Positions 5,630 through 64,000 of a stretch of DNA of 64,000 nucleotides are shown in pieces. Source of the stretch: an uncultured delta proteobacterium (GTDB lineage: Bacteria; Myxococcota_A; Polyangia; Polyangiales; Polyangiaceae); the NCBI GenBank assembly GCA_963716725.1, contig CAVQUB010000020.1, positions 197,040-261,039 on the forward strand. Reading direction: 5' to 3'. The translations under genes were made by a program, and so were the position numbers. A model generated the notes under the pieces. That model had not been told where the DNA came from. It made no database searches and saw only the letters and a program-made list of their open reading frames with translations. The stretch's first letter is position 1, and the number at the start of each line of letters is the position of its first letter.

Positions 5630-5675
5630 CGACTTCGTTCCTCGACTTAGAAATCCGCCAACGCTTGCTCTCGAC

Positions 5676-7177
5676 TCACACGCTCCGGGACCGACGCACC
5701 GCGTCGCGCCACCCGGCGAGCCGTTCGGACCGTACAGCTTCGGCCATCGAAGGTTGAAACGTCCGGTCCACCGTGATCATTTGGCTGGCGTCGGCGCCGG
5801 TACGGAAGAGCCCGGCACCGATGCCCGCCAACATGGCGGCGCCACGCGCCGTGGACTCCAGCTCGCTGGGGCGCTCGACCACCAGGTTCCCGACGTCGCT
5901 CTGGAACTGCATCAGCAGGTCGTTGGCGGCGGCCCCGCCGTCGACGCGCATCCGGCCGAGGGGCTCGCCCAGATCGGCAGCCATGGCGCCCAGCAGATCG
6001 TTGACGGAGAGCGCGATGCCCTCGAGCGTGGCTCGCGCCAGGTGGGCTCGTGTGGAGCCGCGGGTCAGCCCGCAGATCAGGCCTCGAGCCCCGGGATCCC
6101 AGTAGGGGGCCCCGAGCCCGGAGAGCGCCGGCACGAAGCTGACGCCGTCGCTCGAATCCACCGATGCTGCGAGGGTTTCGACCTCGCTCGCGCTGGCGAT
6201 CAGGCCCAAGCCGTCCCGCAGCCACTGCACCGCAGCGCCGGCGATGAACGAGCTGCCTTCGAGCGCGTAGACTACGTCAGGACCGATCTGCCAGCCCACG
6301 GTCGAGAGCAGCCCCGACCGGCTGACGACCGGCTGACTGCCGGCGTTCACCAGGACGAACGCACCGGTGCCGTAGGTACACTTGGCGTCCCCGACCCCGA
6401 AGCACGCCTGCCCGAACAGCGCCGCCTGCTGATCGCCGGCCATGCCTGCGATCACGATTCCGTCGGGCAAGGCCAGGCATGCCGTGGGTTCGCGCGATTT
6501 CTCCGGCCGTCGGTACAATCTTGGGCAGCACGGTCGGAGGCACCCGCAACAGCTCGCACATGGCGGGATCCCAAGCGCGCCGGGCGAGGTCCATGAGCAG
6601 GGTACGCGAGGCGTTGGACACCTCGGTCACGTGGGGCGCGGAGGCCGAACTGCCACCCGCGAGCCGGTGTACCAGGAACGAGTCGATGGTCCCGAAGGCG
6701 AGCTCGCCCTGGTTCGCTCGAGCACGCGCGCCATCCACGTTATCGAGCAGCCACTCGAGCTTGGTCCCGGAGAAGTACGGGTCGAGGACCAGCCCGGTCG
6801 TCTCGCGCACGCGCGCCTCGTGGCCTCGGCCTTTGAGTTCCGCGCAGCGATCGGCGGTGCGCCGGTCCTGCCACACGATGGCCCGGTGGATGGCGCGGCC
6901 GGTCGCACGCTCCCACACCACGGTGGTCTCGCGCTGGTTGGTGATTCCGATCGCGCCGATCTGGTCGCCCCGGACGGCTGCGCTCGAGATGGCCTCACAA
7001 ACGGAATCGACCACGCTCTCCCAGATCTCGTCGGGCTCGTGCTCGACCCAGCCCGGTTTCGGGAAAATGTTGAGCGAACTCGCGGTTGGCCCGACCGAGC
7101 GTCCGACCGTGGGTATCCATCACGAGCGCGGTCGAGCCCGTGGTCCCTTGATCGATGGCGAGGATGTGCGCGCTCAC
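5676..7177 (-). CDS. glpK: Glycerol kinase (frameshifts near 7070 and 6480)
   Basis: [63 protein letters not shown] spread across three frames. Confidence 0.93.
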
Positions 7178-7311
7178 TGCCCCGCAGACTATCAGGCCCC
7201 AGCCCGCGGGCTCAAACCGGCCCATCCGCGCGGGCCACAGCCGGCAATTCTCGGGAAACCCCGGGCGCGCTTGTCCCCGCCGAACGAGGACGGTAGCCTT
7301 CGTCGTCGAGT

Positions 7312-9222
7312 ATGCCGCGCTTGCTTCTTGCCACGCCGGAAGGCCAACAGGTGGTCGAGCTGCGCGCGTTCAACTCACTGGGCCGTCATCCGAGCAATAC
7401 CATCCAGCTCCTCGACAAGATCGTGTCGAAGGAGCACTGCATCGTGGAACGGCGCGGCAACGAATTCGTGCTGCGCGATCTGGGCAGCTTGAACGGCACC
7501 TACATCAACGGTGAGCGGGTCACGGTCGGCGGCGAGCAGATGCTCCGCCACGGCGACGACATCGCGCTCGGCAGCACCCGAGCTCGCTTCGACGACGGTT
7601 CCGGAAAGCCCGTGGCCCCACCGGTCTGGTCGCCGGCGCCCGCGACGCCCGGCGGCCCGGGTTCCCCCCCGATGGTGGCGGCGCCACCCCCGGCCTGGCA
7701 GCCCGCCGCCCCAGTCCAGCAGCCGAGTCTCCCGCCCGCGTCGCACCAACGCCCGGTGCCAATGAGCGCGGTGCCCGCGACGACGCCAGCAACGCCCGGA
7801 ATGGTGCCGCAGCTTCCCCTCTCGCTTCCGGGCCCCGGCAGCGTGACGTCACCGGGCCAATACCAAGCCTACAACCGCACCCCGACCCTCGACGACCCCG
7901 AGGCCCACGCGCTGCCGCCGCTGAATGCGACGCGCGTCAACATGAATGACCAGTCGCGCGCCATCGGCACCCAGATCGCCGCGACACAAAAGGGGTTTCT
8001 CCCTTACGACCAGCTCGCCGGCGAACAGCCCCCAGCTCCACGCCGACTACGAGCGACTCCGCCTCTCTCACGAGCTGTCGCGCGAGATCGCCCTCGAGCG
8101 CGACCTTCGGTCCTGCTCAACAAGATCCTGCTCACGATCTTCAAGTTCGTACGCGCGGATCGCGGGGTCATTTTCCTTCGCGACTCCTCGGGAGAACTGC
8201 GCCCGGGCGCCAGCCTCCGGCGCGACGGTACCGACTCGCCGATCAGCGTCTCCTCCACGATCCTGAACCACGTGATCAAGGAGCGCGCGACGGTGCTCAC
8301 CCACGACGCCGCCATGGACTTCGCGGCGTCCAAGGGCAAGAGCATGATCCTGAACCGGATCAGCTCGGCCATCGTGGTGCCGCTGCTGCACAACGACGAC
8401 ATCCTCGGCGTGCTGTGGCTCGACACCGAGTCGCTCGCGCAGTTCCAACCGAAGGACCTGGAGATCGTCACGGCCGTCGCCGCGCAGGCCGCGATGTTCA
8501 TCGAGATCAACATCCTCGGCAAGAAGATCGAGCAAGAGATCATCACCCGCGAGCGCTTCAGCCGCTTGCTCTCGCCGAACATCGCCGAGCGAGTGCTGTC
8601 CGGCGAGCTCGAGGTCAACAAGGGCGGCCAGCTCGTCGCCGAGTGCACGGTGTTCAACTCCGACATCCGCGGCTTCACGCGCATGAGCGAGGGAACGCAG
8701 CCAGAGATCATCGTCGAGATGCTGAACGAGTACTTCGAGCTGATGGTCGAGACGTTGTTCAAGTACGAAGGCACTCTCGACAAGTTCATGGGCGACGGCA
8801 TCATGGCGCTGTGGGGAGCGCCGGTGGTTCACCCGGACGATCCGACCCGCTCGGTTGCTTGCGCCATCGAGCAGATGGAGGTGCTCGGGCGCTTCAACCG
8901 CGCCCGAGTCGGCGCGAACCTTCCGCCGCTCGGCGTCGGCATCGGCATCCACACCGGACCCCTGGTCGCCGGCTACATCGGCAGCTCGCTCGCGCTCTCC
9001 TACACCGTCATCGGCGACGTCGCGAACACCAGCGCGCGACTGTGTGGCGTCGCGGCGGCCGGGCAGATCCTCGTGAGCGAGCAGACCCTGGGGCGACTCA
9101 GCGAGAAATTCGAGTACGAGGAACTGCCGCCGGCCCAGCTCAAGGGCAAGGGCAGGCCCTTCCGCATCTTCAACGTCCTGGGTCGCGCGACTGCCGTGCA
9201 AGTCCCGGCCTCGGTCGGATGA
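7312..9222 (+). CDS. FHA-GAF-class III adenylate/guanylate cyclase
   Basis: FHA motifs [21 protein letters not shown]; Pro-rich linker; GAF; cyclase motifs [31 protein letters not shown]. Apparent compensated frameshift at about 8020-8110. Confidence 0.9.
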
Positions 9223-9719
9223 GGGTCGGGGTCTACGCAGCCGCCTTCGCGATCTCGCTCGGCGGTTGCGCCGGTGACAAGACCATGCCCGCGTCTGCGC
9301 CCAGCGCACTGGCAGGCAAACCACTCCCGACCTTCAGCCGCCGCACGCTGAGCGGCGAGAAGCTGGACACCAAGTCGCTGGTGGGTCGCGTGGTGGTGGT
9401 GAAGTTCTTCGCAGAGTACTGCGCGCCGTGCACCAAGACGCTGCCCGCAGCCCAAGCCCTCGCGGCAGAACACCCCGGCGTGGCCTTCATCGGCATCTCC
9501 GAGGACGAGCGTGCCTCGACCGCCGCGGAGCTCGTGGCGCGCCACGGTCTGAGCTTCCCAGTGATCCACGACGCGGGCCAGGTGCTGTGGGGCCGCTTCC
9601 GCGTTCGGGAGATGCCAGCCACCTTCGTGGCGGGCAAGGACGGCATCGTGCGCTGGGTCGGCGACGAGACCGCCGACGAAGCCACGCTGCGAGACGCCAT
9701 CGAAGTGGCGGCCAAGTGA
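9219..9719 (+). CDS. TlpA/ResA-like thioredoxin lipoprotein
   Basis: ATGA overlap with the cyclase, lipobox LGGC, redox motif FFAEYCAPC. Confidence 0.85.
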   Translation: MRVGVYAAAFAISLGGCAGDKTMPASAPSALAGKPLPTFSRRTLSGEKLDTKSLVGRVVVVKFFAEYCAPCTKTLPAAQALAAEHPGVAFIGISEDERASTAAELVARHGLSFPVIHDAGQVLWGRFRVREMPATFVAGKDGIVRWVGDETADEATLRDAIEVAAK

Positions 9720-9828
9720 GGGCAAAATCCCCGCCTGATGCGCCGCGTCGCGGGCTGGTCTGACCTGTTGGCGCCCAACACCCCTTGGCACGCGCCCCCC
9801 GCCTCTGCGAGTCTCCGCGCCCCTCCCC

Positions 9829-10779
9829 ATGGCCCACGTGCTCGCGTTCGAGAAACCGGTGGTCGAGCTGGTCTCGCGAGTGCGAGAGCTGCGCGAGCTG
9901 GCGAGCTCCGACGCTCGCCTGGCGCCCGAGCTCGCGCGCCTGGAGGAGAAGGCGGCCAAGCTCGCGCGCGAGATGTTCTCCCGGCTCGAGCCGATGCAGA
10001 AGGTGCAGCTGTCGCGGCACCCGAATCGTCCCTACACGCTGGACTACATCGCGCGCTTGTTCGACGACTTCGTGGAGCTCTCCGGCGACCGTTGCTTCGC
10101 CGAGGACGCGTCCATCGTCGGCGGCCTGGCGCGCTACCACGATCGCAGCGTGGTGCTGCTCGGCCACCAGAAGGGGCGCAGCACCAAAGAGAACATGGGC
10201 CGGAACTTCGGGATGCCGAACCCCGAAGGGTATCGTAAGGCGACTCGGCTCTACGAACTCGCGGATCGCTTCCGCCTACCCGTACTCGCCTTCGTCGACA
10301 CGCCAGGAGCGTACCCGGGGATAGAAGCCGAAGAGCGCGGGCAGGCCGAGGCCATCGCCCATGCGATCGAGGTCATGGCACGCATCGGCGTTCCAGTCGT
10401 GACGACGGTGATCGGCGAAGGCGGCTCCGGCGGTGCGCTGGCCCTCGGGATCGGAAACCGCGTCCTGATCCTCGAGTTCAGCTACTACTCGGTGATCTCG
10501 CCGGAGGGTTGCGCGGCCATCCTGTGGAAGGACGGCACGCTCGCACCGCGAGCCGCGGAGCGGCTGAAGATCACCGCGCCCGACCTGCTCGACCTGGGCT
10601 GCGTGGACGCCATCGTCGAAGAACCCCCGGGCGGTGCCCATCAGGACCACGACGACGCGGCTCGCCGCCTCGATCGCGCGCTGTGGGAAGCCCTGGTCTC
10701 GCTGGACGGACTGTCGCCCGACGAGCTCAGCGCGGACCGCTACCAGCGCTTTCGTCGGCTCGGGTCCTTCGTCGCCTGA
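9829..10779 (+). CDS. accA: Acetyl-CoA carboxylase carboxyltransferase alpha subunit
   Basis: RHPNRPYTLDYI, NFGMPNPEGYRKA, DTPGAYPG, GEGGSGGALA, YSVISPEGCAAIL. Confidence 0.97.
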   Translation: MAHVLAFEKPVVELVSRVRELRELASSDARLAPELARLEEKAAKLAREMFSRLEPMQKVQLSRHPNRPYTLDYIARLFDDFVELSGDRCFAEDASIVGGLARYHDRSVVLLGHQKGRSTKENMGRNFGMPNPEGYRKATRLYELADRFRLPVLAFVDTPGAYPGIEAEERGQAEAIAHAIEVMARIGVPVVTTVIGEGGSGGALALGIGNRVLILEFSYYSVISPEGCAAILWKDGTLAPRAAERLKITAPDLLDLGCVDAIVEEPPGGAHQDHDDAARRLDRALWEALVSLDGLSPDELSADRYQRFRRLGSFVA

Positions 10780-50556: not shown

Positions 50557-50942
50557 AGCTGCGCCTTCACCGCCTCGGGAAGCGGCACCAAGCGCTTTTC
50601 GGCATCAACGCAGACGAGCTCCACTTGACCCTCGACCAACACCTCGTCGCTGCCTTCCTGAACCACATTCTGTTTGAAGGACAGCCGGTAGTCGCTTGAC
50701 TTGTCGACCGTGGTGCGGATTTCGAGGAGGTCACCGAAGCCGGAGCCGCGCCGAAAGGTCACCTCGACCCGATACACGACGAAGCCGATGCCATCGTCAC
50801 GCAGCAAGCGCACCAGCTCCTGGGCACCCAGCACGTGCTCTCGTGCGCGTTCAAAGTACTTCAGATAGTTCGCGTGATAGACTAGGCCAGAGTGGTCCGT
50901 GTCTTCATAGTAGATCTGAACGCGATGCCGATACGTGTTCAT
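50553..50942 (-). CDS. YbgC/FadM-family hotdog acyl-thioesterase
   Basis: YYEDTDHSGLVYHANYLKYFERAR; TGATG overlap with pfa3. Confidence 0.9.
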   Translation of the reverse strand: MNTYRHRVQIYYEDTDHSGLVYHANYLKYFERAREHVLGAQELVRLLRDDGIGFVVYRVEVTFRRGSGFGDLLEIRTTVDKSSDYRLSFKQNVVQEGSDEVLVEGQVELVCVDAEKRLVPLPEAVKAQL

Positions 50943-53900
50943 CACTCGATGATGACCTCTCCGCCCGCCGGCCCATAGAGACGACGAGCGAGCTCCGCGA
51001 GCCAGAGTCCGACCGGCGTGGCCGGCAAGGACAAGCGCCCCTGTCGAGCGCCGCTGAGCAGCGCCTGCACTTCGTCGCCGGGCGCGCTGAGCGCTGCCAG
51101 CATCTCGAACAAGGCCGCGTGCTCTGCGCTGGCGCCGGTGCGCCGGGCGCGCTCGGACACGCAGGCCGCGAAGGCCGGGTCGGGAGACATGGGCTCTTCC
51201 TCGGCGTTGTTCGGCCCCAGCGCGTTGATGGCCTCGATCACGACCGCCTTGCGCTCCTTGTAGGGCAGCGCCTCGAAGGTCTCGGGCTGGATGGGGCGGC
51301 CAAAGTGGAGATCTTGCCGCCCCATCTCGAAGGGGAACTCGATCCGGCCTTCCAGAGGCCGCGCCGGCAGCCCGCCGACGAAACGCACCGGAACGATGGG
51401 CGCCCGAGTGGCGAGCGCCATGTCGATGAAGAGGCTGGTCATCTTGACCACGGGAGTGCGACAGCTGAGCGAACGGGTGCCCTCGATGTGCACCATCACG
51501 CTCTTGCCAGGCCCCATCATCTCTCGGGACAGCTCGAGAACGATGCTGCTGAGTGCGCTCGAATCGCCGCGGTCGAAGTAGGTGATGACCCGCGGGTCGA
51601 CGATGCCCGGATAGGAGAAACAGTGCTGAATCAGCAGGCCGAGCCAGGTCGTCCGGTGCTCCTCTTTGGCCAGGGTGACCGTCGGCACGCCGGACAAACC
51701 GGAGGCAATGATCGAAAACAACAGCGACTCGATCCCGACTTGGTGATTGGCGAGGTACAACGTGCTGCGGCCCCGCAGCGCGGCAAAGGCAGCTGGATCG
51801 GCGATGTGCACCGCACCCACGAAGCGATGGATCAGCCCGTAGTACAAGTCCTCGACGGGCCAGCGGCCTGCGTCGAAGTAGCGGTCCCAATACCTGCGTA
51901 CGGGCGCTAGATCGAGGCGGGGACTTCCGGCGCTGCGCACGCAGATCTCGTGATCCGTGACGGCCACGTCGAGCTCGTGACGCGTGAGCGGCTGCGCGGC
52001 GCTGACCGCGTGCCGTCCGTCGATCTGTACCGTCGAGGGGTGAACACCCGCCAAGAGTGCGACGTGATCTTTGGCGGCCACCTCGAGCGCGGCGTCGCCC
52101 TCCGTGGCGCCCTCCGTGGCGTACAGCGACTCGATGGTCCCCGGCAGCCAGTTGCTCGCCTTGATCGCGTGCAGGGGCAGCCGCGTGACACCGCCCTCTC
52201 GTCGCGACAGCGCCATGCCGGGCACCGCGCGTCGATCGCGTAAGAACGCGACTCGCTCGAGCGGCGGCACGTCGCCGAGTGGTCCTTTCGGCATGAGGAT
52301 CTCGGTCAGGCGCAGCGAAAGCCAGACTTGCCCTGCGTCGATCAGCTGCACGACGAAGCTCGGGAAGCGGAAATCGCCGTCGAAGCCCGCGAAGCGCACC
52401 TCACAACGAAGCTGCCCAGCCTCGGGCGGCGGCCCGAAGATCTTCATCTCGGCGATGCGGTACGGATAACCCACCTGATCGACCGGGATCTCGTCGCACC
52501 AGCGATGGAGCGTGTCGTTGGGAATGGCGTGTGTGATCGCGTCCAGCAGCACCTGGTTGAGGCAGCCCTTCGGCACCCGGCCTGGCGCAACATCGAGCAG
52601 CGCGCTCGAACCACTGGCGCCCAGCGCCAGCCGGCTGAGCTTCTGGAACGCTTCGCCGTGAAATAGGTGTCCCGCTCGATAGGGATCCGGCACCGCCACC
52701 GCATCGGCGAGCGGCTCGAGTGGCTCGGGGGCCTTCGCGTAGTCGCCCAAGAGCACGCTGGCCGTGGCGACCAGCTCGAAGCGCGAGAGCTCGGCGCGCG
52801 GCGCGCTCCTGAAGGCCAAGAGCTTCACGTCATAGCGCTGCTGTCCGGCAGCGTGGTGGCGGCTCTGGGTGACCTCCGTGCGCAGTCGCGTCGACGAAGT
52901 GATGGGCAGCCAGCGCTCGACGCGGACGTTGTCTACCTCCACCACGGCGCGCTGCGGCTCTCTCGCGAGCGCGGCGGCCGCCATGCGATCGACCATGGAC
53001 ATGAGCGGGAGCGCCGGCGCGGTGTAGGTCGGGCGGTGATCGGTGATCCAGCTGTCGACCGCTGGATCGAGGACCTCTTCCCGATCCGAGGCGGAGCTAT
53101 CGCCGGGGACGATGCGCATGCCCAGGTTCTTCGCCTCGTAGATGCGCATGCCGTCGACGTAGAGCGATGCGCGAGCGATGGCGTACGGGCCGCGAGCGTC
53201 GGTGCCAAGCTCGACGAGATCGACGAGGGTGTTGATGCAAGCGTTTTTCATCAGCACCTGGCCGCGGTACTTCCAGGTCAGCGGAGCACCGAGCGCCAGC
53301 GGCTCGAAGCGCGCGTTTTCGATGCCCTCGCCCATGCCCCGGTGCAACATCGCGAACTGCAGGAGCTGCACCATCGCCTCGATGCCGAGCGAGCCGGGCT
53401 GCACGGGGTCCTGGAAGAAGTGCGCCTTGAAGAACCACTCGTCAGGCTCTACGTCCTTCTCGGCGCGGTAGCGGCCCAGGGAAGCAGCCCCGCCCTCCGG
53501 CCAGATCCCGGTGACGCGATCGATCATCAAGAGGAAGGGCGACGCGAGCCGAGGACGCGCCTCGAAGTACTGCGCGGGTCGCGCCTCCAGATCGATCAAG
53601 ACATCACTCGCCGCCTCGAGCGCTCCCTGCTCGCTCTCCGGGACGGGCATGCCGACCTGCTTGGCCAGCGCCTCGGCCGGAAAGAACCCGAACACGGTGG
53701 TCATCTCGAACACCGATTCATCCCCCAAGAGACACTCCACCTCGAAAGACTCGATGATCATCCCGGCGGAGCTGGAGATCCCGACGATCTTGGCGCGAGT
53801 GCGCAAGGTGCCCGCGCTTGATAGCACCGCTCTCTTGAGCGTCCCGGTGCCGTCGAGATTGCGGAAACACAGGTCTTGATCGCTGGTGAGCGCGCTGCCG

Positions 53901-56900
53901 ACGAAGGACGCGAGCCAACCACAGGGTTGCAGCGCAGCCTCCATCAACACCGCCATGGGCATGCTGCGAAAGCCGTTCTCGTCGAAGTACCAGGCGTCTG
54001 CGGGCACATCGTAGGCCACCTCGACGCGCTGCCCGACCTGCATCGAGCCGATGTCGCCGTCGATCTGCTCGACGCGCGTCATGAAGTGATAGGGCGGGCC
54101 GGGTAGCCGGGCGACACGGCGATGATTGTCGAAGACTTCGTAGCCGCGCCCGAAGGCCTGGCTGGGCCGACCCCACGCACAAGCGAGCAGCGACCTGTGG
54201 TCAAAACGGAAGCCCGCGGCCTCCGCCACCGGTCCCTCGCGGGTCGACAAGAGCCCCGGCTGGTTCTCGAGGATCTGCTCCAGCGGCCAGTCCGGCACCA
54301 ATCGCAGCGCCATGCGACGGCAATGAAAGGCCTTCAGCCCGTCCACCGTGCAGAGCAGGTCGGCGTAGACGGTCGGAGTGGGGCCATCGACGACCTCCTC
54401 GATGAAGACCTCGTAAACGAGCTGCTTCGAGCTGGGCAGAACCTGACCTCGACAGCGCAGCTGGTAGCGCTCTTCGACGGCGGGCTCGAATCGCCAGCCG
54501 TCCCGCTCGAGCGTGAAGCCGAGCGCGGTGAGGTAGATGGACATCGCCTGCAGGCAGCCCTCGAACATGAGCGTGCCGGGCATGCAGGGGTCGTTCTTGA
54601 AGTGACCGTCGAAGAACCAATCGTCGGGCTCGATGCTGTCGACGGCCCGCAGGTACCCGCGTCCCCAGGGCCCGCCCTTCGGCTCGAACGAGGTCACCTC
54701 GTCGATGAACAGCATGCGACCGGCCGTGACGCGAGGCGTCCGCGTGTGAGCACAGGAGCGCTCGAAGCCAGGGCCGAAGCAGCTCAGCGCATCACCGGCG
54801 GCGAAGGCGCGGACCTGCGCCGCGTCGAACCGGCGTCGCTGGCTCACCTGGGGTGACGGATCGAGACGCGGCTCGTCGCAGCGCTCGCCACTGGACGCTT
54901 CCCACAAGATCCCGCCCGACGCCGCCAGCTCGTCGTCGGTGAAGAAACCCGCTTGTCCGTTGCGCACGCTGAGGCGGGGCTGACCGGCCACCTTGCAGTC
55001 GTAATGAAAGAAGAACAGCCGAATGTCACCCTGGTTGGCGTGACCATCGACGTGAATGTCGTAGCGCAGTGTGTCGCCCGGCTGCGGCAGCTCTCCGTGA
55101 TAGGTGAGCTCGCAGCCCAGCAGGCGGTAGACCCGTTCGGACTTGTTGAGCAGGTCGACGCCGAGATAGCTGATGAGCATCAAGTCCGCCTGGCCGGACT
55201 CGATCATGATGCCCGCGGGCATTCGACCCTCGTGCAGGTACCAGGAGTCGGCGCGCACCTCGGTCTCCGTCCAGATGGTGCCGCGTCCCATCGACAGCGG
55301 GTCAGCGTCGATGCCAAGCACGCGCTCGGCGAGCAAGAGCGGTGGTAGCGGCATCCGCACCTGCCGCCGATAGCTATCTTGGGCCGAGAAGGCCGCACCG
55401 AAGATGCTCGAGATCTGCCCGCCGGCGTGTTGCATCAACCCGGCGCGATCGAGCTTCGGGCCGGGCAGCTCGAGGCTCTGGTTGGGCGCGGGCGGCAGGG
55501 GCGCGGGCGGCAGGGGCGGCGGCGGGAGCGCTTGCGCAGGGCGCGCTGCCGGGAGGCGCCGGCTGTGTGCGTCCACCAGGGCCTGCTGTGTCCGGGCACG
55601 GAGGGCGAGGAACTGCTCATGCAGCGCGGCCTGCTGCAGCAAGAAGCGCTGGTGAAGCTCGGCGATGTGCGCGCGTTGCGCCGCGTGCTGGGTCAGCCAC
55701 GCCGCGGCAGGCGCGGCACCCATCGCCGCTGCCGGCTCCTGCCCCTGTGCTGGCGCTTGCGCCGTCGCGCGCGCAGCAACCGCGGGAGTCGGTGGTTGAT
55801 CGCTCGACGCCGCAACGATCGGCTCGAGCCAGGGCGCGCGCACCATGTTTTGCACGAGATCTGCCGGTGGGGTCAGCGGCGCGACCCACCGCTCATCACC
55901 GATCTCCGGCAGGCGCGGCAGCTGCACCGGGGGCGCATGCGCCGCAAAGCTGCGCTGCGGGCCCGACCTCCTCGCGCTCTTGCCGGCGCGGGCCGGGCCG
56001 TCACCGGCGCGAATGACGACCGCAGCGCGCTGCCCCTCCATCGCCCCGAGCTCGAGTCGCAGGTCTTCGCCACCCAGAACCGCCTCGGCGATCTGGAGCA
56101 ACCCCGAGGCCGCGTGGGCGGAGGTCGCGGGCAGGTCGATCCGGTCGCCCTGCGGGATCGCCGGCGCCACGATCGCGATGATGGGGTGTCCGTTCTTGCG
56201 CGCGTCCTCGAGTCGCTCCAGCACCAGCATCACCGCCGCGTCCGCAGCTTCTCGCGGCTCGTCCAACGCGCAGAGCGCCGCACGCTGCACCGGCTCGGCA
56301 CCGAGATCGACCGCTCCCACCAGCGCCGCATCCAGCTCGCCATGCACGAGAGCGCGGCAGGCGACCTCCAGCGCCCGCACCCCGCTGAGCTCCTCCGAGG
56401 ACAGCGACATGCTGGCGCCGCCGAAGTCCAGAGCGCTGTTGATGCGGTTGGCGACGATGTTGGGCATGGTCCCAAGCACGCCGGCGGCCTCGAGCGGGTG
56501 GACGAAGGCGCCCCGGGCCTCCTCGATCCAAGCCGCGTCGCGCACGCCCCAGCGGCGCGCCCAGGTCGGCAGCCGCCAGCGCGCACCGTAGCGAGCGACG
56601 TTCGGATCGCAGCCCATGCCGATCAGCACGCCCAGGCGCTCCTTCGGCAGATCGGCGAGCCCTTCGAGCGCGTCCCTGGCGGTGGCCAGCGCCAGCAGCT
56701 GCTGCGGCAAGGTCTGCTCCAGGTCCTTGGGTGGAAAGCGTAGACCCTCGAGCGACAGAGCGATCTGGCCGCCCGGCTCCACGCTCTGCCTGGCAATGCC
56801 GACCACGGCGACTTCATGCTTGGCGACGGCGTCGATCGAGCGCTGGGCTCGGCGATGCGAAGCCTCGCCGGCGAGATACTCCTCGACGATCAGGTGCGCG

Positions 56901-58177
56901 TTGTTGCCACCAAAACCGAAGGCGCTCACTGCGGCCCTGCGCGGCCCCTGCTTTTCCCAGGCCTCGGTCGCGGTGAGCACACGAAACGGCGTCCCGATCA
57001 GCCCGTCGAGACGCTCGACCTGATCGAGGTGAAGCGTCGCTGGGAGGCTCCTCGCCTCGAACGCGGCGAGCACCTTCAAGAGGCTCGCCACGCCCGCCGC
57101 CGTGATCAGGTGCCCCAGGTTCGACTTGAGCGAGCCGATGGGCAGCGGGGCGCGATCGCCGAAGATGCGGCGCATGCTGCGGAGCTCAGCGCCGTCGCCG
57201 GCGCTCGTTCCAGTCGCGTGGCACTCGACGTAGTCGATGTCGGCGGGGGTGAGCCCAGCCTGCGCGTAGGCGCGCTGCATCGCGCGGATCTGACCCTCCT
57301 CACCCGGCGCCAAGAGTCCGTTCTCGCGACCGTCGTTCGACAGTCCAACGCCGCGGATCACGCCGAGGATGGGGCGTCCGCTCTTTTCCGCGTCCGCGAG
57401 CCGCTGCAGCACCACGATACCTGCGCCTTCAGCCGGCACTAGGCCGTCGGCTTCGGGATGAAACGGACGACTCTGCCCGCTCGCGCTCAGAGCCTTCAAA
57501 GCACAGAAGCCCACGTGAATGAACAAGTCGTCGGCGCAATTCACTGCACCCGCCAGCATCACGTCTGCGAGACCGTCCTGGAGCCGATCGCAGGCGAGTT
57601 TGATGGCCACCAGCGACGACGCGCACGCGGCATCCAAGCAGTAAGCGACGTCGCCCAAGCCGAGCGCTCGCGCCAAGAGGTGCGCCGGAAGGCCCGAGCT
57701 GAAGCGATTGCGCGGGTCTACGCTGGGCAATCCCGCGGCGTCCGCCAGCGCATCACCCAGCCACACGCGCTCTGCAAAGCGGGTCATGCTGTTCGACGGA
57801 AACGACAGGTTGCCAATGACCGCGCCGGTGCGCGACACGTCGCGCTGCTTCGCATCGATCAAGGCCTCCCGACCCACGTGCAGCAGCCAGCGGAACAGCG
57901 GGTCGAGACCCAGGATCTCGCGGGCCGGAAGCGCGAATCCGGCCGGGTCGAAGCGCGCGTCGAAGCCGCGGACATAGCCGCCCCGGTCCGACCACGTACG
58001 ATCGATCGACGAGGTCAAGCTGCCGAGGACGTCGGCCGGCGCGGCGCCCCAGCGATCGGGTGGAGCCGACGAGAGAAGATCGCGCCGGCTCCGCACCGCT
58101 TCCCAGAGCGCGGCGGGATCCGCAGCGCCCGGCAATAGGCAGGCCCGCCCGACAATCGCGATCGGTTCGAAGCTCAT
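50942..58177 (-). CDS. pfa3: Myxobacterial-type PUFA synthase subunit Pfa3 (KS, CLF, FabA-like DHs, PKS-type DH, AGPAT)
   Basis: KS DAACASS/ECHATGT/GHLITAAG; CLF SSEELSG; FDGHFKNDPCMPG and FKAHFFQDPVQPG; DHRPTYTAPALP; LANHQVGIES..HIEGTRS. Confidence 0.9.
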   Translation of the reverse strand: MSFEPIAIVGRACLLPGAADPAALWEAVRSRRDLLSSAPPDRWGAAPADVLGSLTSSIDRTWSDRGGYVRGFDARFDPAGFALPAREILGLDPLFRWLLHVGREALIDAKQRDVSRTGAVIGNLSFPSNSMTRFAERVWLGDALADAAGLPSVDPRNRFSSGLPAHLLARALGLGDVAYCLDAACASSLVAIKLACDRLQDGLADVMLAGAVNCADDLFIHVGFCALKALSASGQSRPFHPEADGLVPAEGAGIVVLQRLADAEKSGRPILGVIRGVGLSNDGRENGLLAPGEEGQIRAMQRAYAQAGLTPADIDYVECHATGTSAGDGAELRSMRRIFGDRAPLPIGSLKSNLGHLITAAGVASLLKVLAAFEARSLPATLHLDQVERLDGLIGTPFRVLTATEAWEKQGPRRAAVSAFGFGGNNAHLIVEEYLAGEASHRRAQRSIDAVAKHEVAVVGIARQSVEPGGQIALSLEGLRFPPKDLEQTLPQQLLALATARDALEGLADLPKERLGVLIGMGCDPNVARYGARWRLPTWARRWGVRDAAWIEEARGAFVHPLEAAGVLGTMPNIVANRINSALDFGGASMSLSSEELSGVRALEVACRALVHGELDAALVGAVDLGAEPVQRAALCALDEPREAADAAVMLVLERLEDARKNGHPIIAIVAPAIPQGDRIDLPATSAHAASGLLQIAEAVLGGEDLRLELGAMEGQRAAVVIRAGDGPARAGKSARRSGPQRSFAAHAPPVQLPRLPEIGDERWVAPLTPPADLVQNMVRAPWLEPIVAASSDQPPTPAVAARATAQAPAQGQEPAAAMGAAPAAAWLTQHAAQRAHIAELHQRFLLQQAALHEQFLALRARTQQALVDAHSRRLPAARPAQALPPPPLPPAPLPPAPNQSLELPGPKLDRAGLMQHAGGQISSIFGAAFSAQDSYRRQVRMPLPPLLLAERVLGIDADPLSMGRGTIWTETEVRADSWYLHEGRMPAGIMIESGQADLMLISYLGVDLLNKSERVYRLLGCELTYHGELPQPGDTLRYDIHVDGHANQGDIRLFFFHYDCKVAGQPRLSVRNGQAGFFTDDELAASGGILWEASSGERCDEPRLDPSPQVSQRRRFDAAQVRAFAAGDALSCFGPGFERSCAHTRTPRVTAGRMLFIDEVTSFEPKGGPWGRGYLRAVDSIEPDDWFFDGHFKNDPCMPGTLMFEGCLQAMSIYLTALGFTLERDGWRFEPAVEERYQLRCRGQVLPSSKQLVYEVFIEEVVDGPTPTVYADLLCTVDGLKAFHCRRMALRLVPDWPLEQILENQPGLLSTREGPVAEAAGFRFDHRSLLACAWGRPSQAFGRGYEVFDNHRRVARLPGPPYHFMTRVEQIDGDIGSMQVGQRVEVAYDVPADAWYFDENGFRSMPMAVLMEAALQPCGWLASFVGSALTSDQDLCFRNLDGTGTLKRAVLSSAGTLRTRAKIVGISSSAGMIIESFEVECLLGDESVFEMTTVFGFFPAEALAKQVGMPVPESEQGALEAASDVLIDLEARPAQYFEARPRLASPFLLMIDRVTGIWPEGGAASLGRYRAEKDVEPDEWFFKAHFFQDPVQPGSLGIEAMVQLLQFAMLHRGMGEGIENARFEPLALGAPLTWKYRGQVLMKNACINTLVDLVELGTDARGPYAIARASLYVDGMRIYEAKNLGMRIVPGDSSASDREEVLDPAVDSWITDHRPTYTAPALPLMSMVDRMAAAALAREPQRAVVEVDNVRVERWLPITSSTRLRTEVTQSRHHAAGQQRYDVKLLAFRSAPRAELSRFELVATASVLLGDYAKAPEPLEPLADAVAVPDPYRAGHLFHGEAFQKLSRLALGASGSSALLDVAPGRVPKGCLNQVLLDAITHAIPNDTLHRWCDEIPVDQVGYPYRIAEMKIFGPPPEAGQLRCEVRFAGFDGDFRFPSFVVQLIDAGQVWLSLRLTEILMPKGPLGDVPPLERVAFLRDRRAVPGMALSRREGGVTRLPLHAIKASNWLPGTIESLYATEGATEGDAALEVAAKDHVALLAGVHPSTVQIDGRHAVSAAQPLTRHELDVAVTDHEICVRSAGSPRLDLAPVRRYWDRYFDAGRWPVEDLYYGLIHRFVGAVHIADPAAFAALRGRSTLYLANHQVGIESLLFSIIASGLSGVPTVTLAKEEHRTTWLGLLIQHCFSYPGIVDPRVITYFDRGDSSALSSIVLELSREMMGPGKSVMVHIEGTRSLSCRTPVVKMTSLFIDMALATRAPIVPVRFVGGLPARPLEGRIEFPFEMGRQDLHFGRPIQPETFEALPYKERKAVVIEAINALGPNNAEEEPMSPDPAFAACVSERARRTGASAEHAALFEMLAALSAPGDEVQALLSGARQGRLSLPATPVGLWLAELARRLYGPAGGEVIIE

Positions 58178-60420
58178 GCTCGCTGGTGGGTCTCGACGCC
58201 CTCGAGTCGCGCGACCACGCGACCAGTTCCGTCGATGAAGGTGATGTCGCTGACGGCTCTGCCATTGCCCTCGGCCTTGGCGCTGACCAAGCAACGAAAC
58301 GGCCCTGCGGCGCGCTCGGCGCTGAACGAGCGGTAGGCCGATAGGCCCGTTGGGAGGGCGCGTCCTCCCAGGCAGTGGTTGGCCCACAAGAGCGCCAGCT
58401 GCAGGCCCCCATCGAGCAGCGCCGGATCAGTCTGCCACGGTCCGCCAATCCACTGCTGCTCCTCGGTACCCACGACGTCACCGGCGATGCCGCCCGCGCC
58501 CACACCCTGCACGCCGCGGATCACTTGAAACTGCGGACCATGGAACAGCGCATCGCCGTAGATGGCTGCGCAAAGTGGCCCAAGCGGGAGCGGCGGCGGC
58601 TCCCCTGAGCAGCGCCTGCCCAGCGCCTCCAGCGCCTCGGGCTCGACGAGCTCGACCACGGCAGCGTAGTGACGCAGACGCGGGTCGACGGGATCGCAGA
58701 GCTCCACTTCGACCTCTCGCGCGCTGCGCTGCTTGCAGCGCAGGCTGAGCCAATTCCCACCGCGTTGGAAGCGCTCGAGCCGAACGCCGCGAAACACCCG
58801 TAGGTCGCGACACGCGGCAACGGCGAGCCCGGGGCACAAAGCGGTCGCCGCGCGCGCGAACCACTCCAGCACCAGCACCAGGGGCAACACCGGCACGTCC
58901 TCGATGGCGTGGTCCACCAGGTACGGGTGGCTGCTGGCGTCGACACGCACCGCGAAGCGCGCCTCGCTTGCCCCATCGGCATCGGCAGCGTCGCCGGCAA
59001 TGGCAGCTCGGCGCGGGGCGCCGCCAAGCACCACCTCGATCTGTCTGTCGTCGCTGAGCTCCTCCAACATCATGCGGGCGCCCGCTTCGAGGGGGATGAG
59101 CGCCACGCCGTGCTCGGTGAAGTAGCGTTTCAGCTCCGGGGTCACCATCCCGGCTTCCCAGGGCCCCCAGTTCAACGACTTGACCACTGAGCCCGGATGC
59201 CGCCGAGCAAAGCGCGCGGCGACCTTGTTGAGCATCTCGTTGGCCATGGCGTAGTCGCATTGGCCGACGTTTCCGCTCCGCGCAGCCACCGACGAGAACA
59301 GGACCAAGAGCGAGAGCGGGTCGTCCGCCGTGGCAGCCAAGAGGGCGCGGATCCCGCTGACTTTGGTCCCGAGCACACGCTCGAACTGCTCCGGTGTCTT
59401 GTCGGCGATGAGCTTGTCAGCCACCACGCCGGCACCGTGAACGATCCCGGTGATCGGCCCCCACTCTCGGCGAACCCGCGTCAACGCCTCGCGCAGCGCG
59501 TCGGCGCAGGACACGTCGAGGGCGAGATAGCGAGCCGGCGAGCCGGCCGCTTCCAGGGCTGCCAGGGTGCTTCGGATCTCCCGGACTGCGAGGATGCCGC
59601 GAGCCGCCGCGCCGAGCTCGGCCGGCTTGACCGTGCGGCCTTCGGCCTTCGCGGCCGAGAGCAGGATCTTCTTGAGCCCTGCGTCGTCGCTGACACCGAC
59701 GCAAGCGGCGGGCTCGTCGGCGACCGGCGTGCGGCCGATCAACACGATGCGCGGCCTGTACTGCCTGGCCAACGCGATCAGCGTCGCAGCAGTAACGCCG
59801 CGCGCACCCCCCGAGCAAACGAGCACGCTGCGTTCGTCGATGGGGGGCGTGCACGTCGCCCGCGGCTCCTCGAGCGCGGTCCTCAGCGTCGTGCGCCGAC
59901 CGTCGGCGTGCAAGCCCACTTCGATGTCATTGCCGCCAGCGTAGAGCTCGAGGGCGATGGCCTCGGCCAGCTCCGCCGCGCTGCGTTCGCCGCGCTCCAG
60001 ATCAATCGCCTTGACGGATGCTCGAGGCCACTCGAGCGACGCAGTCTTCGCCAGGCCGGCCAATCCACCGAGCCAAGCCCGCTCGCTGCCGCTGAGACCG
60101 AAGTCGCCCCCGGTGTCTTGCACCGTGACGAAGACGCCGCCGCTGGCGCGCGGAGCAAAGGCCTTTGCCGCACGGAAGGCCTCGCGATTGATCTCGACGG
60201 CTTCGTCGTCGCTCCCCAGCTCGCGAAGTCCGCCGAGAAAGATCACGGCTCCCGCAGCTGAGTCGACCTGATCCACCACACGCGCCGCCAGCTGCCGCCT
60301 GCGCAGCTCTTCGACCAAGGCTTCGGCAACACCACGGTGGTCGCGGGTGACCAATACCTCTCCGACTCTGCTCAGCGTCGCGAGCCCCGCCATCGCGAGG
60401 CCACACGCCGGCGCAGCCAC
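58174..60420 (-). CDS. pfa2: Pfa2 C-terminal part (KR-DH), probably separated from the upstream part by a frameshift
   Basis: SGGARGVT, HGAG, GQCDYAMANE, YLVDHAIEDVPVLP. Confidence 0.85.
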   Translation of the reverse strand: MAAPACGLAMAGLATLSRVGEVLVTRDHRGVAEALVEELRRRQLAARVVDQVDSAAGAVIFLGGLRELGSDDEAVEINREAFRAAKAFAPRASGGVFVTVQDTGGDFGLSGSERAWLGGLAGLAKTASLEWPRASVKAIDLERGERSAAELAEAIALELYAGGNDIEVGLHADGRRTTLRTALEEPRATCTPPIDERSVLVCSGGARGVTAATLIALARQYRPRIVLIGRTPVADEPAACVGVSDDAGLKKILLSAAKAEGRTVKPAELGAAARGILAVREIRSTLAALEAAGSPARYLALDVSCADALREALTRVRREWGPITGIVHGAGVVADKLIADKTPEQFERVLGTKVSGIRALLAATADDPLSLLVLFSSVAARSGNVGQCDYAMANEMLNKVAARFARRHPGSVVKSLNWGPWEAGMVTPELKRYFTEHGVALIPLEAGARMMLEELSDDRQIEVVLGGAPRRAAIAGDAADADGASEARFAVRVDASSHPYLVDHAIEDVPVLPLVLVLEWFARAATALCPGLAVAACRDLRVFRGVRLERFQRGGNWLSLRCKQRSAREVEVELCDPVDPRLRHYAAVVELVEPEALEALGRRCSGEPPPLPLGPLCAAIYGDALFHGPQFQVIRGVQGVGAGGIAGDVVGTEEQQWIGGPWQTDPALLDGGLQLALLWANHCLGGRALPTGLSAYRSFSAERAAGPFRCLVSAKAEGNGRAVSDITFIDGTGRVVARLEGVETHQRA

Positions 60421-60425
60421 CTCAG

Positions 60426-62975
60426 CTAGCGCGTGGCGGCCGAGTTGGCCGCGGGCGCTTTTGGGCGGGCGGTCTCCTCCGGCGCGTCGCCCTGCAAGCG
60501 CGCCTTCATGTAGCTGACGATCTCACCGAGCGTGCTCAGGGCCGCCATCGCCTTGGTGTCCACCTGCGGCAGCTTCGGTTGCTTCTGCTGCATCGCGGAC
60601 AGGATCTCGACGCGCTTGATCGAGTCGATGCCGAGGTCCGCTTCGAGCGCCATGTCCATCGCGAGCGTCTCTACGGGGTAGCCGGTCTTGTCCGCGACCA
60701 CCTCCAGCAACAGCGCTTCGGCATCGATGGCGCCGTCGCTGGGCGCAGGCGCGCCGATGGGCGCGGGCGCGGGCGCGGCGGCAGGCGCGGGCGCAGGCCG
60801 ATCCGCGACGGGCGGCGCCATCGGCACGTAGGCTGCCGGCTGCGCTGCGACGGAGATCGCCGAAACCGCCATCGGTGCCGGCGCGCTCAGGGCCTGCGGC
60901 GCGTAGGCGAAGCTGGGCTGAGACGCTAGGACCGTGGCCGCCGGCATCCCGCTGGCCATCGCCGTCAAGCCGGCGAGCCCCCGTTCGGCCGTCTGCAAGA
61001 AGGCGATGTGCGCTTGGGCCATCGCGTTCTGGAACGCGGTGTGGGCCTCCGCGGTCTGACGCTGCGCCTCCTGGTACGCAAACGCCCAGCTGTCGACGGG
61101 CATGGCGAAGGAACGCTGCGCGGACGCCTGCGTCTGCTGCACGACGTAGTGGGCTGCGGCGGGCTCAGCCGCTGCGACGGCAGCGACGCTGGAGCTGCGG
61201 TTGCCAGCACCGGCGCCATTGGAAGGCGCAGCGCCATTCGAGGGGATACTGCTGGTTGAGGGGCGTGCTTCTGGTTGGGACTTGTTCACTGTGGCCTCGG
61301 GGTCATCCGTCGCGTTGTTGGGGAGAGTCACGGCCGCGGCGCCTTGGGGCGGCGGATAGGGTTTGCCGTAGTTGGAGCCGGTGAGTTGCAGCGTCATCTT
61401 CGGCCGCACGACCCGGCGGGGATCTTCGTCCTTCGCGTGGCTGGCCCACAGGGGCGCGAGATCGAGCGCCACGCCGGCGGCGACCAACTGCGCGAGCGCC
61501 TCGTGCCAGCTGCGCATGCCGTGCTTGGACTTGCGGTCGAGCGCGATGGCCAGATGTTCGCGTCCCTCGAGGATGCGGCCCGTCAAGCCGGTCAGCACCG
61601 AGCCCGGCCCGACCTCCACGAAGATGCGAACTCCGGCGGCATAGATGGCCTCAATCTGCTCGACGAAGCGCACCGGCTGGGCGATTTGCCCGGCCAGCAC
61701 CTTGCGGATCTCGTCCGGCTCGGACGGATACGGCGCCGCGATCGCGTTCGCGTACACGTCCAGCTTGGGTGCCGAAACGACGACGCCGGCCAGCGCCTCG
61801 GCAAACGGTGCGATGGACGGCTGCACGATCGAGGAATGAAATGCAGTGGCAACCGCCAGGCGCTGCGCGGAGAGTCCCGCCTTGCTCAGAGCTTCTTCGA
61901 CCGCTTCGATGGCGTCTACCGCGCCGCTCAGGACGACCTGCGTCGGCGCGTTGTGGTTCGCGATCACGACGCCGGCACCCGAGCGCTCGACGACAGTACG
62001 CACCTGGTCGATGCCGGCGCTGACGGCGAGCATGGCGCCGGGTGTGGCCGCTGCCTCGGCCATCAACTCGCCGCGCTTGCGGGCGACGCGCAGCATCGTC
62101 ACGGCATCGATCACGCCGGCCGCATGCAGCGCGGTCACCTCTCCGTAGCTGTGCCCAGCCACGCACTCGGGTCGCAGCCCGACCAGGTCGAGCAAGCGCA
62201 GCATCGACAAAGACGTCGCGCCGATGGCGGGCTGCGCCCACTCCGTACGAATGAGCCTCTGGGCTTGCGCGGCCTTGCTCTCTGGGTCGAAGGCCGGCCG
62301 AGGAAACACCACGCCGTGCAGACCCAGTCCCGCGTCGGCTGCGAGATCCCATGCCGCCCGCGCGGCGTCGTAGCTCATCGCCAGGTCGGCACCCATGCCG
62401 AGGTACTGGCTGCCCTGCCCTGGGAACAAGAAGGCCACCCGACCCACGGGCTTGCCCACACCGTAGAAGAGGCCGTCGGGGGTCGAGAATGACGTGTCGG
62501 GTAGCGAAGCAATGCGCTCGCTGGCCTTGTCGAGCCGAGCGCGGAGCTCCGCTTCGTCGCGAGCGACCACGGCCAGGCGCGCCCCGGCGCCAGCGCTCCC
62601 GGCTTCTTGCGTGGTGCGCGCGAACCACCTGAGGAAACCCTCCCCGCCCACCTCGACCGCGCGAATGCGCTCGAGCAACGCCGCGGGGCTGTCAGCGCCG
62701 AGCACCACCAATTCGTCGGGCGCCACGCGGGTGCGGTAGGCCTGCGGTGCGCTACCCCGGTACTCCTCCAGCGCAACATGGAAGTTGCTTCCGCCAAAGC
62801 CGAAGGAGCTCACGCCAGCGCGGCGCGGATGATCGCCCGCGCGGATCCACGGGCGCGTCTCGCTGTTGAGATAGAAGGGGCTGTCTTCCAGAGCGAGCGC
62901 CGGGTTCGGCTTGCCGATCTTGATGCTTGGCGGCAGCACCTTGTGGTGCAGCGCCATGACCGCTTTGAACAGGCC
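60426..62975 (-). CDS. pfa2: Pfa2 fragment (KS C-terminus, AT, ACP), truncated at its 5' end by the foreign junction
   Basis: GVSSFGFGGSNFH, FLFPGQGSQY, GHSYG, AFHS, ACP LGIDSIKRVEIL. Confidence 0.88.
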   Translation of the reverse strand, partial: GLFKAVMALHHKVLPPSIKIGKPNPALALEDSPFYLNSETRPWIRAGDHPRRAGVSSFGFGGSNFHVALEEYRGSAPQAYRTRVAPDELVVLGADSPAALLERIRAVEVGGEGFLRWFARTTQEAGSAGAGARLAVVARDEAELRARLDKASERIASLPDTSFSTPDGLFYGVGKPVGRVAFLFPGQGSQYLGMGADLAMSYDAARAAWDLAADAGLGLHGVVFPRPAFDPESKAAQAQRLIRTEWAQPAIGATSLSMLRLLDLVGLRPECVAGHSYGEVTALHAAGVIDAVTMLRVARKRGELMAEAAATPGAMLAVSAGIDQVRTVVERSGAGVVIANHNAPTQVVLSGAVDAIEAVEEALSKAGLSAQRLAVATAFHSSIVQPSIAPFAEALAGVVVSAPKLDVYANAIAAPYPSEPDEIRKVLAGQIAQPVRFVEQIEAIYAAGVRIFVEVGPGSVLTGLTGRILEGREHLAIALDRKSKHGMRSWHEALAQLVAAGVALDLAPLWASHAKDEDPRRVVRPKMTLQLTGSNYGKPYPPPQGAAAVTLPNNATDDPEATVNKSQPEARPSTSSIPSNGAAPSNGAGAGNRSSSVAAVAAAEPAAAHYVVQQTQASAQRSFAMPVDSWAFAYQEAQRQTAEAHTAFQNAMAQAHIAFLQTAERGLAGLTAMASGMPAATVLASQPSFAYAPQALSAPAPMAVSAISVAAQPAAYVPMAPPVADRPAPAPAAAPAPAPIGAPAPSDGAIDAEALLLEVVADKTGYPVETLAMDMALEADLGIDSIKRVEILSAMQQKQPKLPQVDTKAMAALSTLGEIVSYMKARLQGDAPEETARPKAPAANSAATR

Positions 62976-62991
62976 AACAACACCAACAACA

Positions 62992-63011
62992 CCCCAAAAC
63001 CCCAAAACCCC
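62992..63011 (+). repeat. Ciliate telomere C4A4C4A4C4 (20 bp)
   Basis: ccccaaaaccccaaaacccc at the GC-rich to AT-rich transition. Confidence 0.95.
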
Positions 63012-63071
63012 ATTCATTTGAGGATAGATATATAAATAATGTATAACTAATATGCTTTTTAATATATTTAA

Positions 63072-63926
63072 TCACTTATCTGTGTGATTCATCATTTCAT
63101 TAGTCCAAATCCTTGTTGGATTTAACTCATCCAGTTCTCCCAATGCTCCTTTTATGATATGATCAGTGAGCACATTCAAATGAATACTTGCTGACTGAGG
63201 AAAGAACCCTTAAACCTTTTAATTGCCAGGTAGCTTGCTAATAACCTTTCTGTTCAGTTGGTAGCCAACATCAGTTGCTAACTTGAAAGGGATACTCCAA
63301 TTTCTTTCACTTTCATGCCACACGAGTCCTGGCTTAAGTATAACTGGGATAAGTTCAGGGCAATTGTTTAGTAGGAATTCTTCAGCTTACTCTTTCATCT
63401 CAATGTATTTTTTAAGATGAGGTGCTATAGTCTTAGAGGCTGATAAGAAGACAAAGTGGCCTTTCTTGTGAGCTCTTTTCAATCGGTTATTGTAATGCTC
63501 AGCAATTAATTTGCATGAATCTCTGTTTAAAGCTTCGAGACTCTTTTCATAAGGAGGCTTCCCTTCACCCTTCACTGTGTTATAAATTTCTGAGGGGCTA
63601 ACTTTCCCTTGAATAACAGATGAAATACCACCTTTCAGTATGCTTTTGTAGTCAACCCCTTCAAGCAAGGCACCTACTGTATGGATAACAGCATCACATT
63701 CTACTAAATCCTCAGGGTACGTCTCAGGCTTTAAAGCATCACCCTCGATAAATTTAACATTGGTGAACCTTGTTGTTTGAGGGTCTCTTTCCATTTACTT
63801 CTCTACGGGACTCCTACTCATAGATAGTACAATGCAATTAGGAACAGTCCCAGCCATCATTTTAGTGACGTAATTGCCAATATATCCAGTGCCTCCTGTT
63901 ATTAAAATTTTCTTTTTGTGATTCAT
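63072..63926 (-). CDS. NAD(P)-binding extended/atypical SDR (epimerase-like), 284 aa in the ciliate code
   Basis: MNHKKKILITGGTGYIG, VIHTVG, YIEMK, ILKPGLV in one frame through four TAA codons; ends at TGA. Confidence 0.9.
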
Positions 63927-63976
63927 TATTTATTATTATATTATTATATTTAAAGCTGTTTAGATATAGTATTCAT

Positions 63977-64000
63977 GGGGTTTTGGGGTTTTGGGGTTTT
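63977..64000 (+). repeat. Ciliate telomere (G4T4)3 to the window end
   Basis: ggggttttggggttttggggtttt. Confidence 0.95.

Follow-up and report, generated by a model that had tools for sequence, protein, structure and literature searches.

The window, as we call the whole stretch of 64,000 nucleotides that was analysed, corresponds to C20:197040-261039, and its position 64000 is the final base of contig C20. The genome that was screened consists of 35 contigs with 7,886,190 bases; the completeness of the bin is 84%. Near the contig end the base composition changes: with 200-nt windows the GC content is 0.64-0.74 over 62300-62999 and 0.32-0.42 over 62900-63999. Along the plus strand, bacterial coding sequence up to 62976 is followed by 15 nt, a 20-mer, 60 nt of AT-rich sequence, an ORF, 50 nt of AT-rich sequence and a G4T4 array. 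The features are the following:

50942..58387, minus strand: pfa3-like gene with a KS, a chain-length-factor-like KS, two FabA dehydratases and a C-terminal acyltransferase (Pfam ketoacyl-synt, Ketoacyl-synt_C, FabA twice, Acyltransferase)
58174..60420, minus strand: KR-DH gene of the PUFA-synthase cluster (Pfam KR, PS-DH, PKS_DH_N)
60426..62976, minus strand: native part of a truncated KS-AT-ACP gene (Pfam KAsynt_C_assoc, Acyl_transf_1, PP-binding)
62977..62991, no strand: converted tract ACAACACCAACAACA, bacterial sequence in which each native G appears as A (comparison with native GCGGCGCCGGCAGCG)
62992..63011, plus strand: left telomere C4A4C4A4C4 = CCCCAAAACCCCAAAACCCC (20-mer match)
63012..63071, minus strand: AT-rich 3' trailer of the ciliate gene, 60 nt (reading of the letters)
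63072..63926, minus strand: ciliate gene, 284 aa, Rossmann-fold NAD(P)-binding protein, epimerase/NmrA-like (ORF in translation table 6, Pfam, homologues)
63927..63976, minus strand: AT-rich 5' leader, 50 nt (reading of the letters)
63977..64000, plus strand: right telomere G4T4G4T4G4T4 = GGGGTTTTGGGGTTTTGGGGTTTT, 24 nt, which closes the contig (array match)

An initial annotation of this DNA had placed C4A4C4A4C4 at 62992-63011, (G4T4)3 at the end of the window and an AT-rich stretch with one gene between them. All of these elements were found at those coordinates, and the AT-rich stretch holds a single ORF. Two points required refinement. The annotation was right that the junction cuts a pfa2 gene, but the break is not in the middle of the KS domain; it lies near the C-terminal end of KS, inside GHTKAAAGAAG. 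The start of the telomere was also given correctly, but positions 62977-62991 in front of it are neither telomere nor native sequence.

The bacterial side of the junction is a PUFA-synthase cluster: Pfam domains in adjacent genes include KS-AT-ACP, KR, PS-DH, KS/CLF and FabA-type DH. The truncated KS-AT-ACP gene retains KAsynt_C_assoc, the acyltransferase domain and one ACP; its missing 5' part encodes about 400 aa of KS. At the cut site relatives have ...GHTKAAAGAAGLFKAVMALHHK. The closest homologues in named genomes come from Sorangium and from Polyangiaceae/Myxococcota MAGs with 56-58% identity, and a same-genus genome gives 63%. In the same-genus genome L006 the KS-AT-ACP frame is open over 1290 aa. 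The architecture of the pfa PUFA-synthase clusters of myxobacteria was reportedly described by Gemperlein and colleagues in 2014. Compared with this architecture, the units KS-AT-ACP, KR-DH and KS/FabA-FabA/acyltransferase are likewise consecutive, whereas the pfa2 equivalent (58174-62976) occupies two separate ORFs here, one for KS-AT-ACP, which has a single ACP, and one for KR-DH. A further difference is that the N-terminus of KS and anything upstream of it (pfa1) are lost at the point where the chimera described below cuts the contig. The initial annotation had proposed to look for the 5' end of pfa2 on another contig. A tblastn search of all 35 contigs with the 406-aa query from a relative did not find the missing N-terminus of KS; it returned just paralogous KS domains with 27-39% identity on C20, C2 and C8.

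The telomeric 20-mer CCCCAAAACCCCAAAACCCC has two matches in the window, one on the plus strand at 62992-63011 and one as the complement at 63977-63996. The window was also shuffled 100 times with its dinucleotides preserved, and no match appeared in any shuffle, even when 2 mismatches were allowed. Four further T (63997-64000) extend the right array to (G4T4)3, and a search of the 35 contigs for C4A4/G4T4 arrays returned just these two. Both telomeres point outwards, so that C4A4C4A4C4 stands on the 5' end of each strand; the inner telomere has no 3' overhang and the outer telomere carries 4 extra T. The segment 62992-64000 is 1009 bp long; its one ORF measures 855 nt and is flanked by a leader of 50 nt and a trailer of 60 nt. 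This is a complete macronuclear nanochromosome of the hypotrich type that originates from a ciliate.

The ORF at 63072-63926 on the minus strand encodes 284 aa when it is read with translation table 6; it has in-frame TAA codons at positions 44, 180, 236 and 239 and ends with TGA. With table 11 the same ORF splits into pieces of 43 and 135 aa. A Euplotes-type origin was rejected because TGA serves here as stop and TAA as a sense codon, which does not agree with the Euplotes code. Pfam recognizes an Epimerase domain (Rossmann-type NAD-dependent epimerase/dehydratase N-terminus, E 3.5e-07), with weaker matches to NmrA, 3Beta_HSD and KR.

A search among 5.8 billion cluster representatives identified eight homologues, and those that are named come from ciliates or protists. 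The initial annotation had suggested a search with the 284-aa protein as a check on its ciliate assignment, and the best named match is indeed a ciliate protein, CDW88623.1 from Stylonychia lemnae (56% identity, 92% coverage, E 2.8e-91; UniRef name NAD-dependent epimerase dehydratase). Most of the other homologues sit on contigs of 908-1043 bp. Q stands opposite TAA codons 44 and 180 in the Stylonychia homologue and in several other sequences, and several of the unnamed homologues begin or end where such codons would halt a table-11 gene caller. A scan of metagenome contigs provided 11 loci with a homologue at 40-62% identity, the best being L017 with 62%. Five of these loci start with the exact 20-mer, and two, L020 (1118 bp) and L026 (1539 bp), have it at both ends. 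Because homologues occur on contigs with two telomeres, the normal home of this gene family is on free gene-sized chromosomes. On three metagenome and WGS contigs of 1.4-2.3 kb (L017, L019 and L025) the homologue adjoins a terminal 20-mer and no second telomere is present; the contigs may be assembled incompletely, or they may represent nanochromosomes that are longer or carry two genes.

These features agree with what is published on hypotrichs. In the part of PMC5863220 at hand, all hypotrich telomeres reported to date are (C4A4)2C4, hypotrich chromosomes cloned by their blunt ends give the same 20-mer, and TAA and TAG encode Gln while TGA is the sole stop. The nanochromosomes of Oxytricha trifallax, Stylonychia lemnae and Uroleptopsis citrina, as described in portions of PMC5863220 and PMC3558436, carry the same 5'-C4A4C4A4C4 at each end. 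Going by the same portions, the molecule in the window is also like hypotrich nanochromosomes in its gene size, its single gene, its AT-rich ends of 50-60 nt, its use of TAA for Gln and its TGA stop. The difference is that this one is attached to bacterial DNA. In itself, the nanochromosome adds an unremarkable new example to a well-known class. The ciliate assignment made in the initial annotation is thus borne out by the hypotrich-type telomeres, TAA as sense and TGA as stop codon, the best named match in Stylonychia and homologues on two-telomere contigs. The source is a hypotrich-like spirotrich species that is absent from the searched collections, since the identity of the protein reaches only 56% with the homologue from Stylonychia and 62% with the best locus in metagenomes.

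Next to this we compared the bacterial side of the junction with public sequencing runs. Of the 22 runs listed for a stretch centred on the junction, 20 hold part of it, with a maximum of 0.48 of the sampled words. Four runs, each from a different study, were compared as contigs; all four cover 61950-62984 only and none covers 62985-64000, with the reservation that these Logan contigs show presence and not absence, so that a rare variant carrying the join could escape them. The exact ciliate sequence was sought in these four runs and not found, which says nothing on the habitat of the ciliate. The contigs X1 and X5, which come from two other studies, show no difference to the flank, and their fit ends at 62976. 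Beyond this position they continue with GCGGCGCCGGCAGCGGCTTTGGTGTGGCCG, which in the frame of the gene reads GHTKAAAGAAGLFKAVMALHHK, an intact KS motif; the continuation encodes GHTKAAAGAAGLFK, a motif that is also present in the relatives L007 and L008. X7, from a related strain with 28 differences in 1009 nt, likewise continues natively past the junction. The fact that X1 and X5 are identical in the flank and then proceed into native KS means that the same bacterial population occurs elsewhere with an uninterrupted gene. One of the compared runs might come from the source sample itself; the point would be unaffected.

These data bear on the question of whether the ciliate DNA was integrated into the bacterial chromosome, i.e. 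whether the locus records a transfer from a eukaryote to a bacterium. Contiguity in the deposited contig speaks for such an event, and nothing else does. Host DNA is present on one side of the insert only: the contig stops at the right telomere with no bacterial DNA past it. In the same population the insert is missing from the identical-flank contigs of two studies, and the intact gene of this identical strain contradicts integration. Both telomeres are retained, the four in-frame TAA codons make the gene untranslatable with table 11, and an insertion would destroy the KS of the PUFA synthase. Genuine integration therefore has next to no probability, in agreement with the initial annotation, which had called it unlikely. 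The nanochromosome on C20 is a contaminant or artefact and not a gene transfer; it is not real as a feature of the bacterial genome, and the ciliate gene is functionless in the bacterium. Healing of a broken bacterial end by telomere addition was also considered and rejected. A healed bacterial end would carry the G-strand with its 3' end pointing outwards. Here the polarity is the wrong one, since the bacterial DNA abuts a complete chromosome at the 5' end of its C-strand.

The initial annotation had proposed a cross-domain chimera from a sample that contained a ciliate, and this proposal is supported by X1, X5 (both with an identical flank) and X7, all of which continue into intact KS. The bacterial parent exists on its own in these native contigs; for the ciliate parent, homologous nanochromosomes are known as free molecules.

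The 15 nt between the last native base and the telomere are informative on how the two were joined. A comparison of native GCGGCGCCGGCAGCG, taken from the X1/X5 continuations, with ACAACACCAACAACA in the window shows that all eight G are changed to A and that the other seven letters (six C and one A) are unchanged. A rule that allows only G to A fits 15 of 15 positions, which is true of just one among 5005 possible orders of the letters. G is last seen unconverted at 62973, so that the affected stretch spans 15-18 nt. Read on the coding (minus) strand, the bacterial fragment has T in place of C over the nucleotides at its 5' end. A run of 39 nt made up of A and C only spans the junction and exceeds every other two-letter run of this kind in the genome. 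Random read error does not account for the tract, because the 285-codon frame is intact and the telomeres are perfect. Other origins of the filler, namely a telomeric overhang, such an overhang mixed with bacterial sequence, or an annealing splint, were tried and rejected: none fits position by position, and the G to A rule alone does. A match with the 16-nt length of the Oxytricha overhang carries no weight, with a tract of 15 nt and a single-stranded stretch of 15-18 nt.

The pattern resembles the damage seen in ancient DNA. In the Briggs model for such DNA, cytosine deamination is said to be terminal and to lie within single-stranded overhangs. As after the fill-in of a deaminated 5' overhang, G to A at the 3' end of one strand is here C to T at the 5' end of the other, and its confinement to the last 15-18 nt is likewise expected. 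What differs is that the conversion is complete (8/8) and that it occurs in presumably fresh environmental DNA. In the literature, as far as its accessible parts go, no report was found of fully converted tracts at ligation junctions. The converted tract is the sole unusual detail of the locus, and its mechanism is one that we infer from the pattern of changes.

The native continuation after 62991 (GCTTTGG...) has nothing in common with the telomere, and no repeat is shared at the junction; the end of the telomere directly abuts the end of the bacterial fragment. Since the tract belongs to neither parent and no repeat is shared, the join must have been present in the sequenced molecule or read and was not made by the assembler. 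The initial annotation had spoken of "ligation or assembly" and left the choice open; a physical join of molecules or a join within a read is the more likely of the two. A pure assembler misjoin, in which two true sequences are linked in the graph and the junction exists in no read, would agree with the location at a contig end and with the further foreign contig ends in the same assembly that are described below. However, it leaves the tract at 62977-62991, which is not native to either parent, without a source, and the assembler had neither a shared repeat at the junction nor a telomere array elsewhere in the genome to follow. We regard such a misjoin as very improbable.

A join within a read could also have originated during amplification or reading, either by template switching of a polymerase (MDA or PCR) or from two nanopore molecules that followed back to back and were called as one read. 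Like ligation, these processes yield a junction at the end of a contig from parents that exist separately. Template switching requires microhomology, however, and the native sequence after 62991 has none with the telomere. In a back-to-back read an adapter is expected at the joint, where instead we find converted bacterial sequence. Neither process accounts for the G to A tract or for the exact 20-bp telomere, and we consider an origin of this kind unlikely.

Probably, a free nanochromosome was joined in vitro, end to end, to a bacterial fragment, and the most likely route is a blunt-end ligation after end repair in the preparation of a long-read library. End repair followed by blunt ligation is suggested by the geometry of a filled-in overhang and by the inner telomere, which is exactly 20 bp long without the 16-base overhang. 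A 3' overhang of 16 bases is natural for the telomere of Oxytricha, according to the available part of PMC6778790. In this scheme the bacterial fragment would have ended in a 5' overhang of 15-18 nt on the minus strand, in which the cytosines had been deaminated to uracil. End repair would have filled the overhang and placed an A opposite each U; it would also have stripped the 3' G-overhang from the telomere and left a 20-bp duplex. The two blunt ends could then have been ligated, and one such chimeric molecule would have lengthened the end of contig C20. The location of the join at the contig end is consistent with this. Contigs of up to 799 kb suggest that long reads were used.

Two details count against this explanation. 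The conversion of eight out of eight cytosines far exceeds ordinary damage in fresh DNA, and the outer telomere has 24 nt instead of 20, which is not predicted from a simple blunting of both ends. Ligation chimeras in PacBio libraries are documented in the part seen of a preprint by Griffith et al. (10.1101/245241), and PacBio reads of Oxytricha with embedded telomeres appear in the corresponding part of PMC6937825. The molecule described here is similar to the chimeras in these excerpts, in that unrelated molecules are connected end to end, a telomere is internal and the parents are found separately. It differs in that the two parts joined here stem from different domains of life and that the chimera persisted into a binned genome. 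The fully G to A converted tract of 15 nt is a further difference; it is absent from the descriptions in those excerpts of 10.1101/245241 and PMC6937825. Should tracts of this type turn up at further junctions of the library, they would identify damaged DNA with single-stranded portions as the source material of such chimeras.

Foreign DNA was also detected at other contig ends. A 65% GC contig, C22, opens with about 13.7 kb of 37% GC (C22:1-~13,683; L004:1-13683), and the GC content jumps from 0.28 to 0.67 inside about 30 nt near position 13,683. An ORF on the minus strand (L004:12949-14421) crosses this switch; it combines a truncated MlaE permease, which covers profile positions 2-186 of 212, with a GGDEF domain. 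A NAD-dependent DNA ligase is encoded in the low-GC part as well. The start of C22 is a second chimeric contig end, at which two different bacteria are joined. No comparable converted tract was seen at the C22 junction, which was inspected without a native sequence for comparison. In the final 5.5 kb or so of C18 (C18:~150,700-156,685; L015:~4000-10000) the bacterial codon periodicity is lost and the GC content drops to 0.54-0.65. This end contains 19 of the 20 (CAG/CTG)n arrays with n>=5 in the genome as well as poly-C and CA runs, and a Pfam search with three of its ORFs gave no match. In appearance it resembles eukaryotic DNA of high GC content, and it probably constitutes a third chimeric end. 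The foreign segments at the contig ends, with lengths of 1, 5.5 and 13.7 kb, are in keeping with chimeric long reads that extend past the real end of a contig.

The join might also have taken place in vivo, inside a ciliate that feeds on bacteria: DNA of the prey would be end-joined to a deprotected end of a nanochromosome, either as a non-heritable product or as an early step of a transfer from prey to predator. Ciliates do graze bacteria, both DNAs come from one sample, and the tract indicates a damaged, partly single-stranded bacterial end as is found in degraded DNA; the joint itself carries no sign that distinguishes end joining in vivo from end joining in vitro. Against this, the telomere is trimmed to the exact 20-bp duplex, which is the product of end-polishing enzymes in the part of PMC5863220 at hand. 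Moreover, the strand that carries the conversion ends 5' at the break, as in a filled-in 5' overhang, whereas resection in vivo would be expected to expose the strand that ends 3'. The non-ciliate DNA at other contig ends points to a general artefact of the library. We therefore judge a join inside the ciliate to be quite improbable. A more specific version, for which the chances are slimmer still, is that the exposed single strand of degraded prey DNA was fully deaminated by an enzyme or by the chemistry of the food vacuole, and that this DNA was end-joined to an end of the nanochromosome in a bacterivorous ciliate. This version, if true, would be the physical first step in the capture of prey DNA by a predator. 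Ligation in the library, set out above, remains the preferred explanation.

The value of the finding is only practical, and the converted tract of 15 nt is a small curiosity. In a public reference set this genome stands for its species. At least three of the 35 contigs have foreign DNA at one end, from a ciliate, from a low-GC bacterium and from a source with eukaryote-like repeats. Gene calling with table 11 would report a eukaryotic gene in fragments and give the PUFA-synthase gene a chimeric N-terminus, and a screen for HGT could then report a false transfer from a eukaryote to a bacterium. The final 1024 bases of C20 should be removed.

Two further regions of the genome deviate in base composition. 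The first 70 nt or so of C14 (C14:1-~70; L016) have 28-46% GC and are followed by sequence with about 68% GC; they could be normal intergenic sequence or, as a fourth case, a foreign contig end. Near the end of C21, a contig with 66% GC, a region of about 56 kb (C21:390,500-447,000) contains many stretches of 300-1650 nt with less than 50% GC, and this region may be a genomic island or a mobile element.
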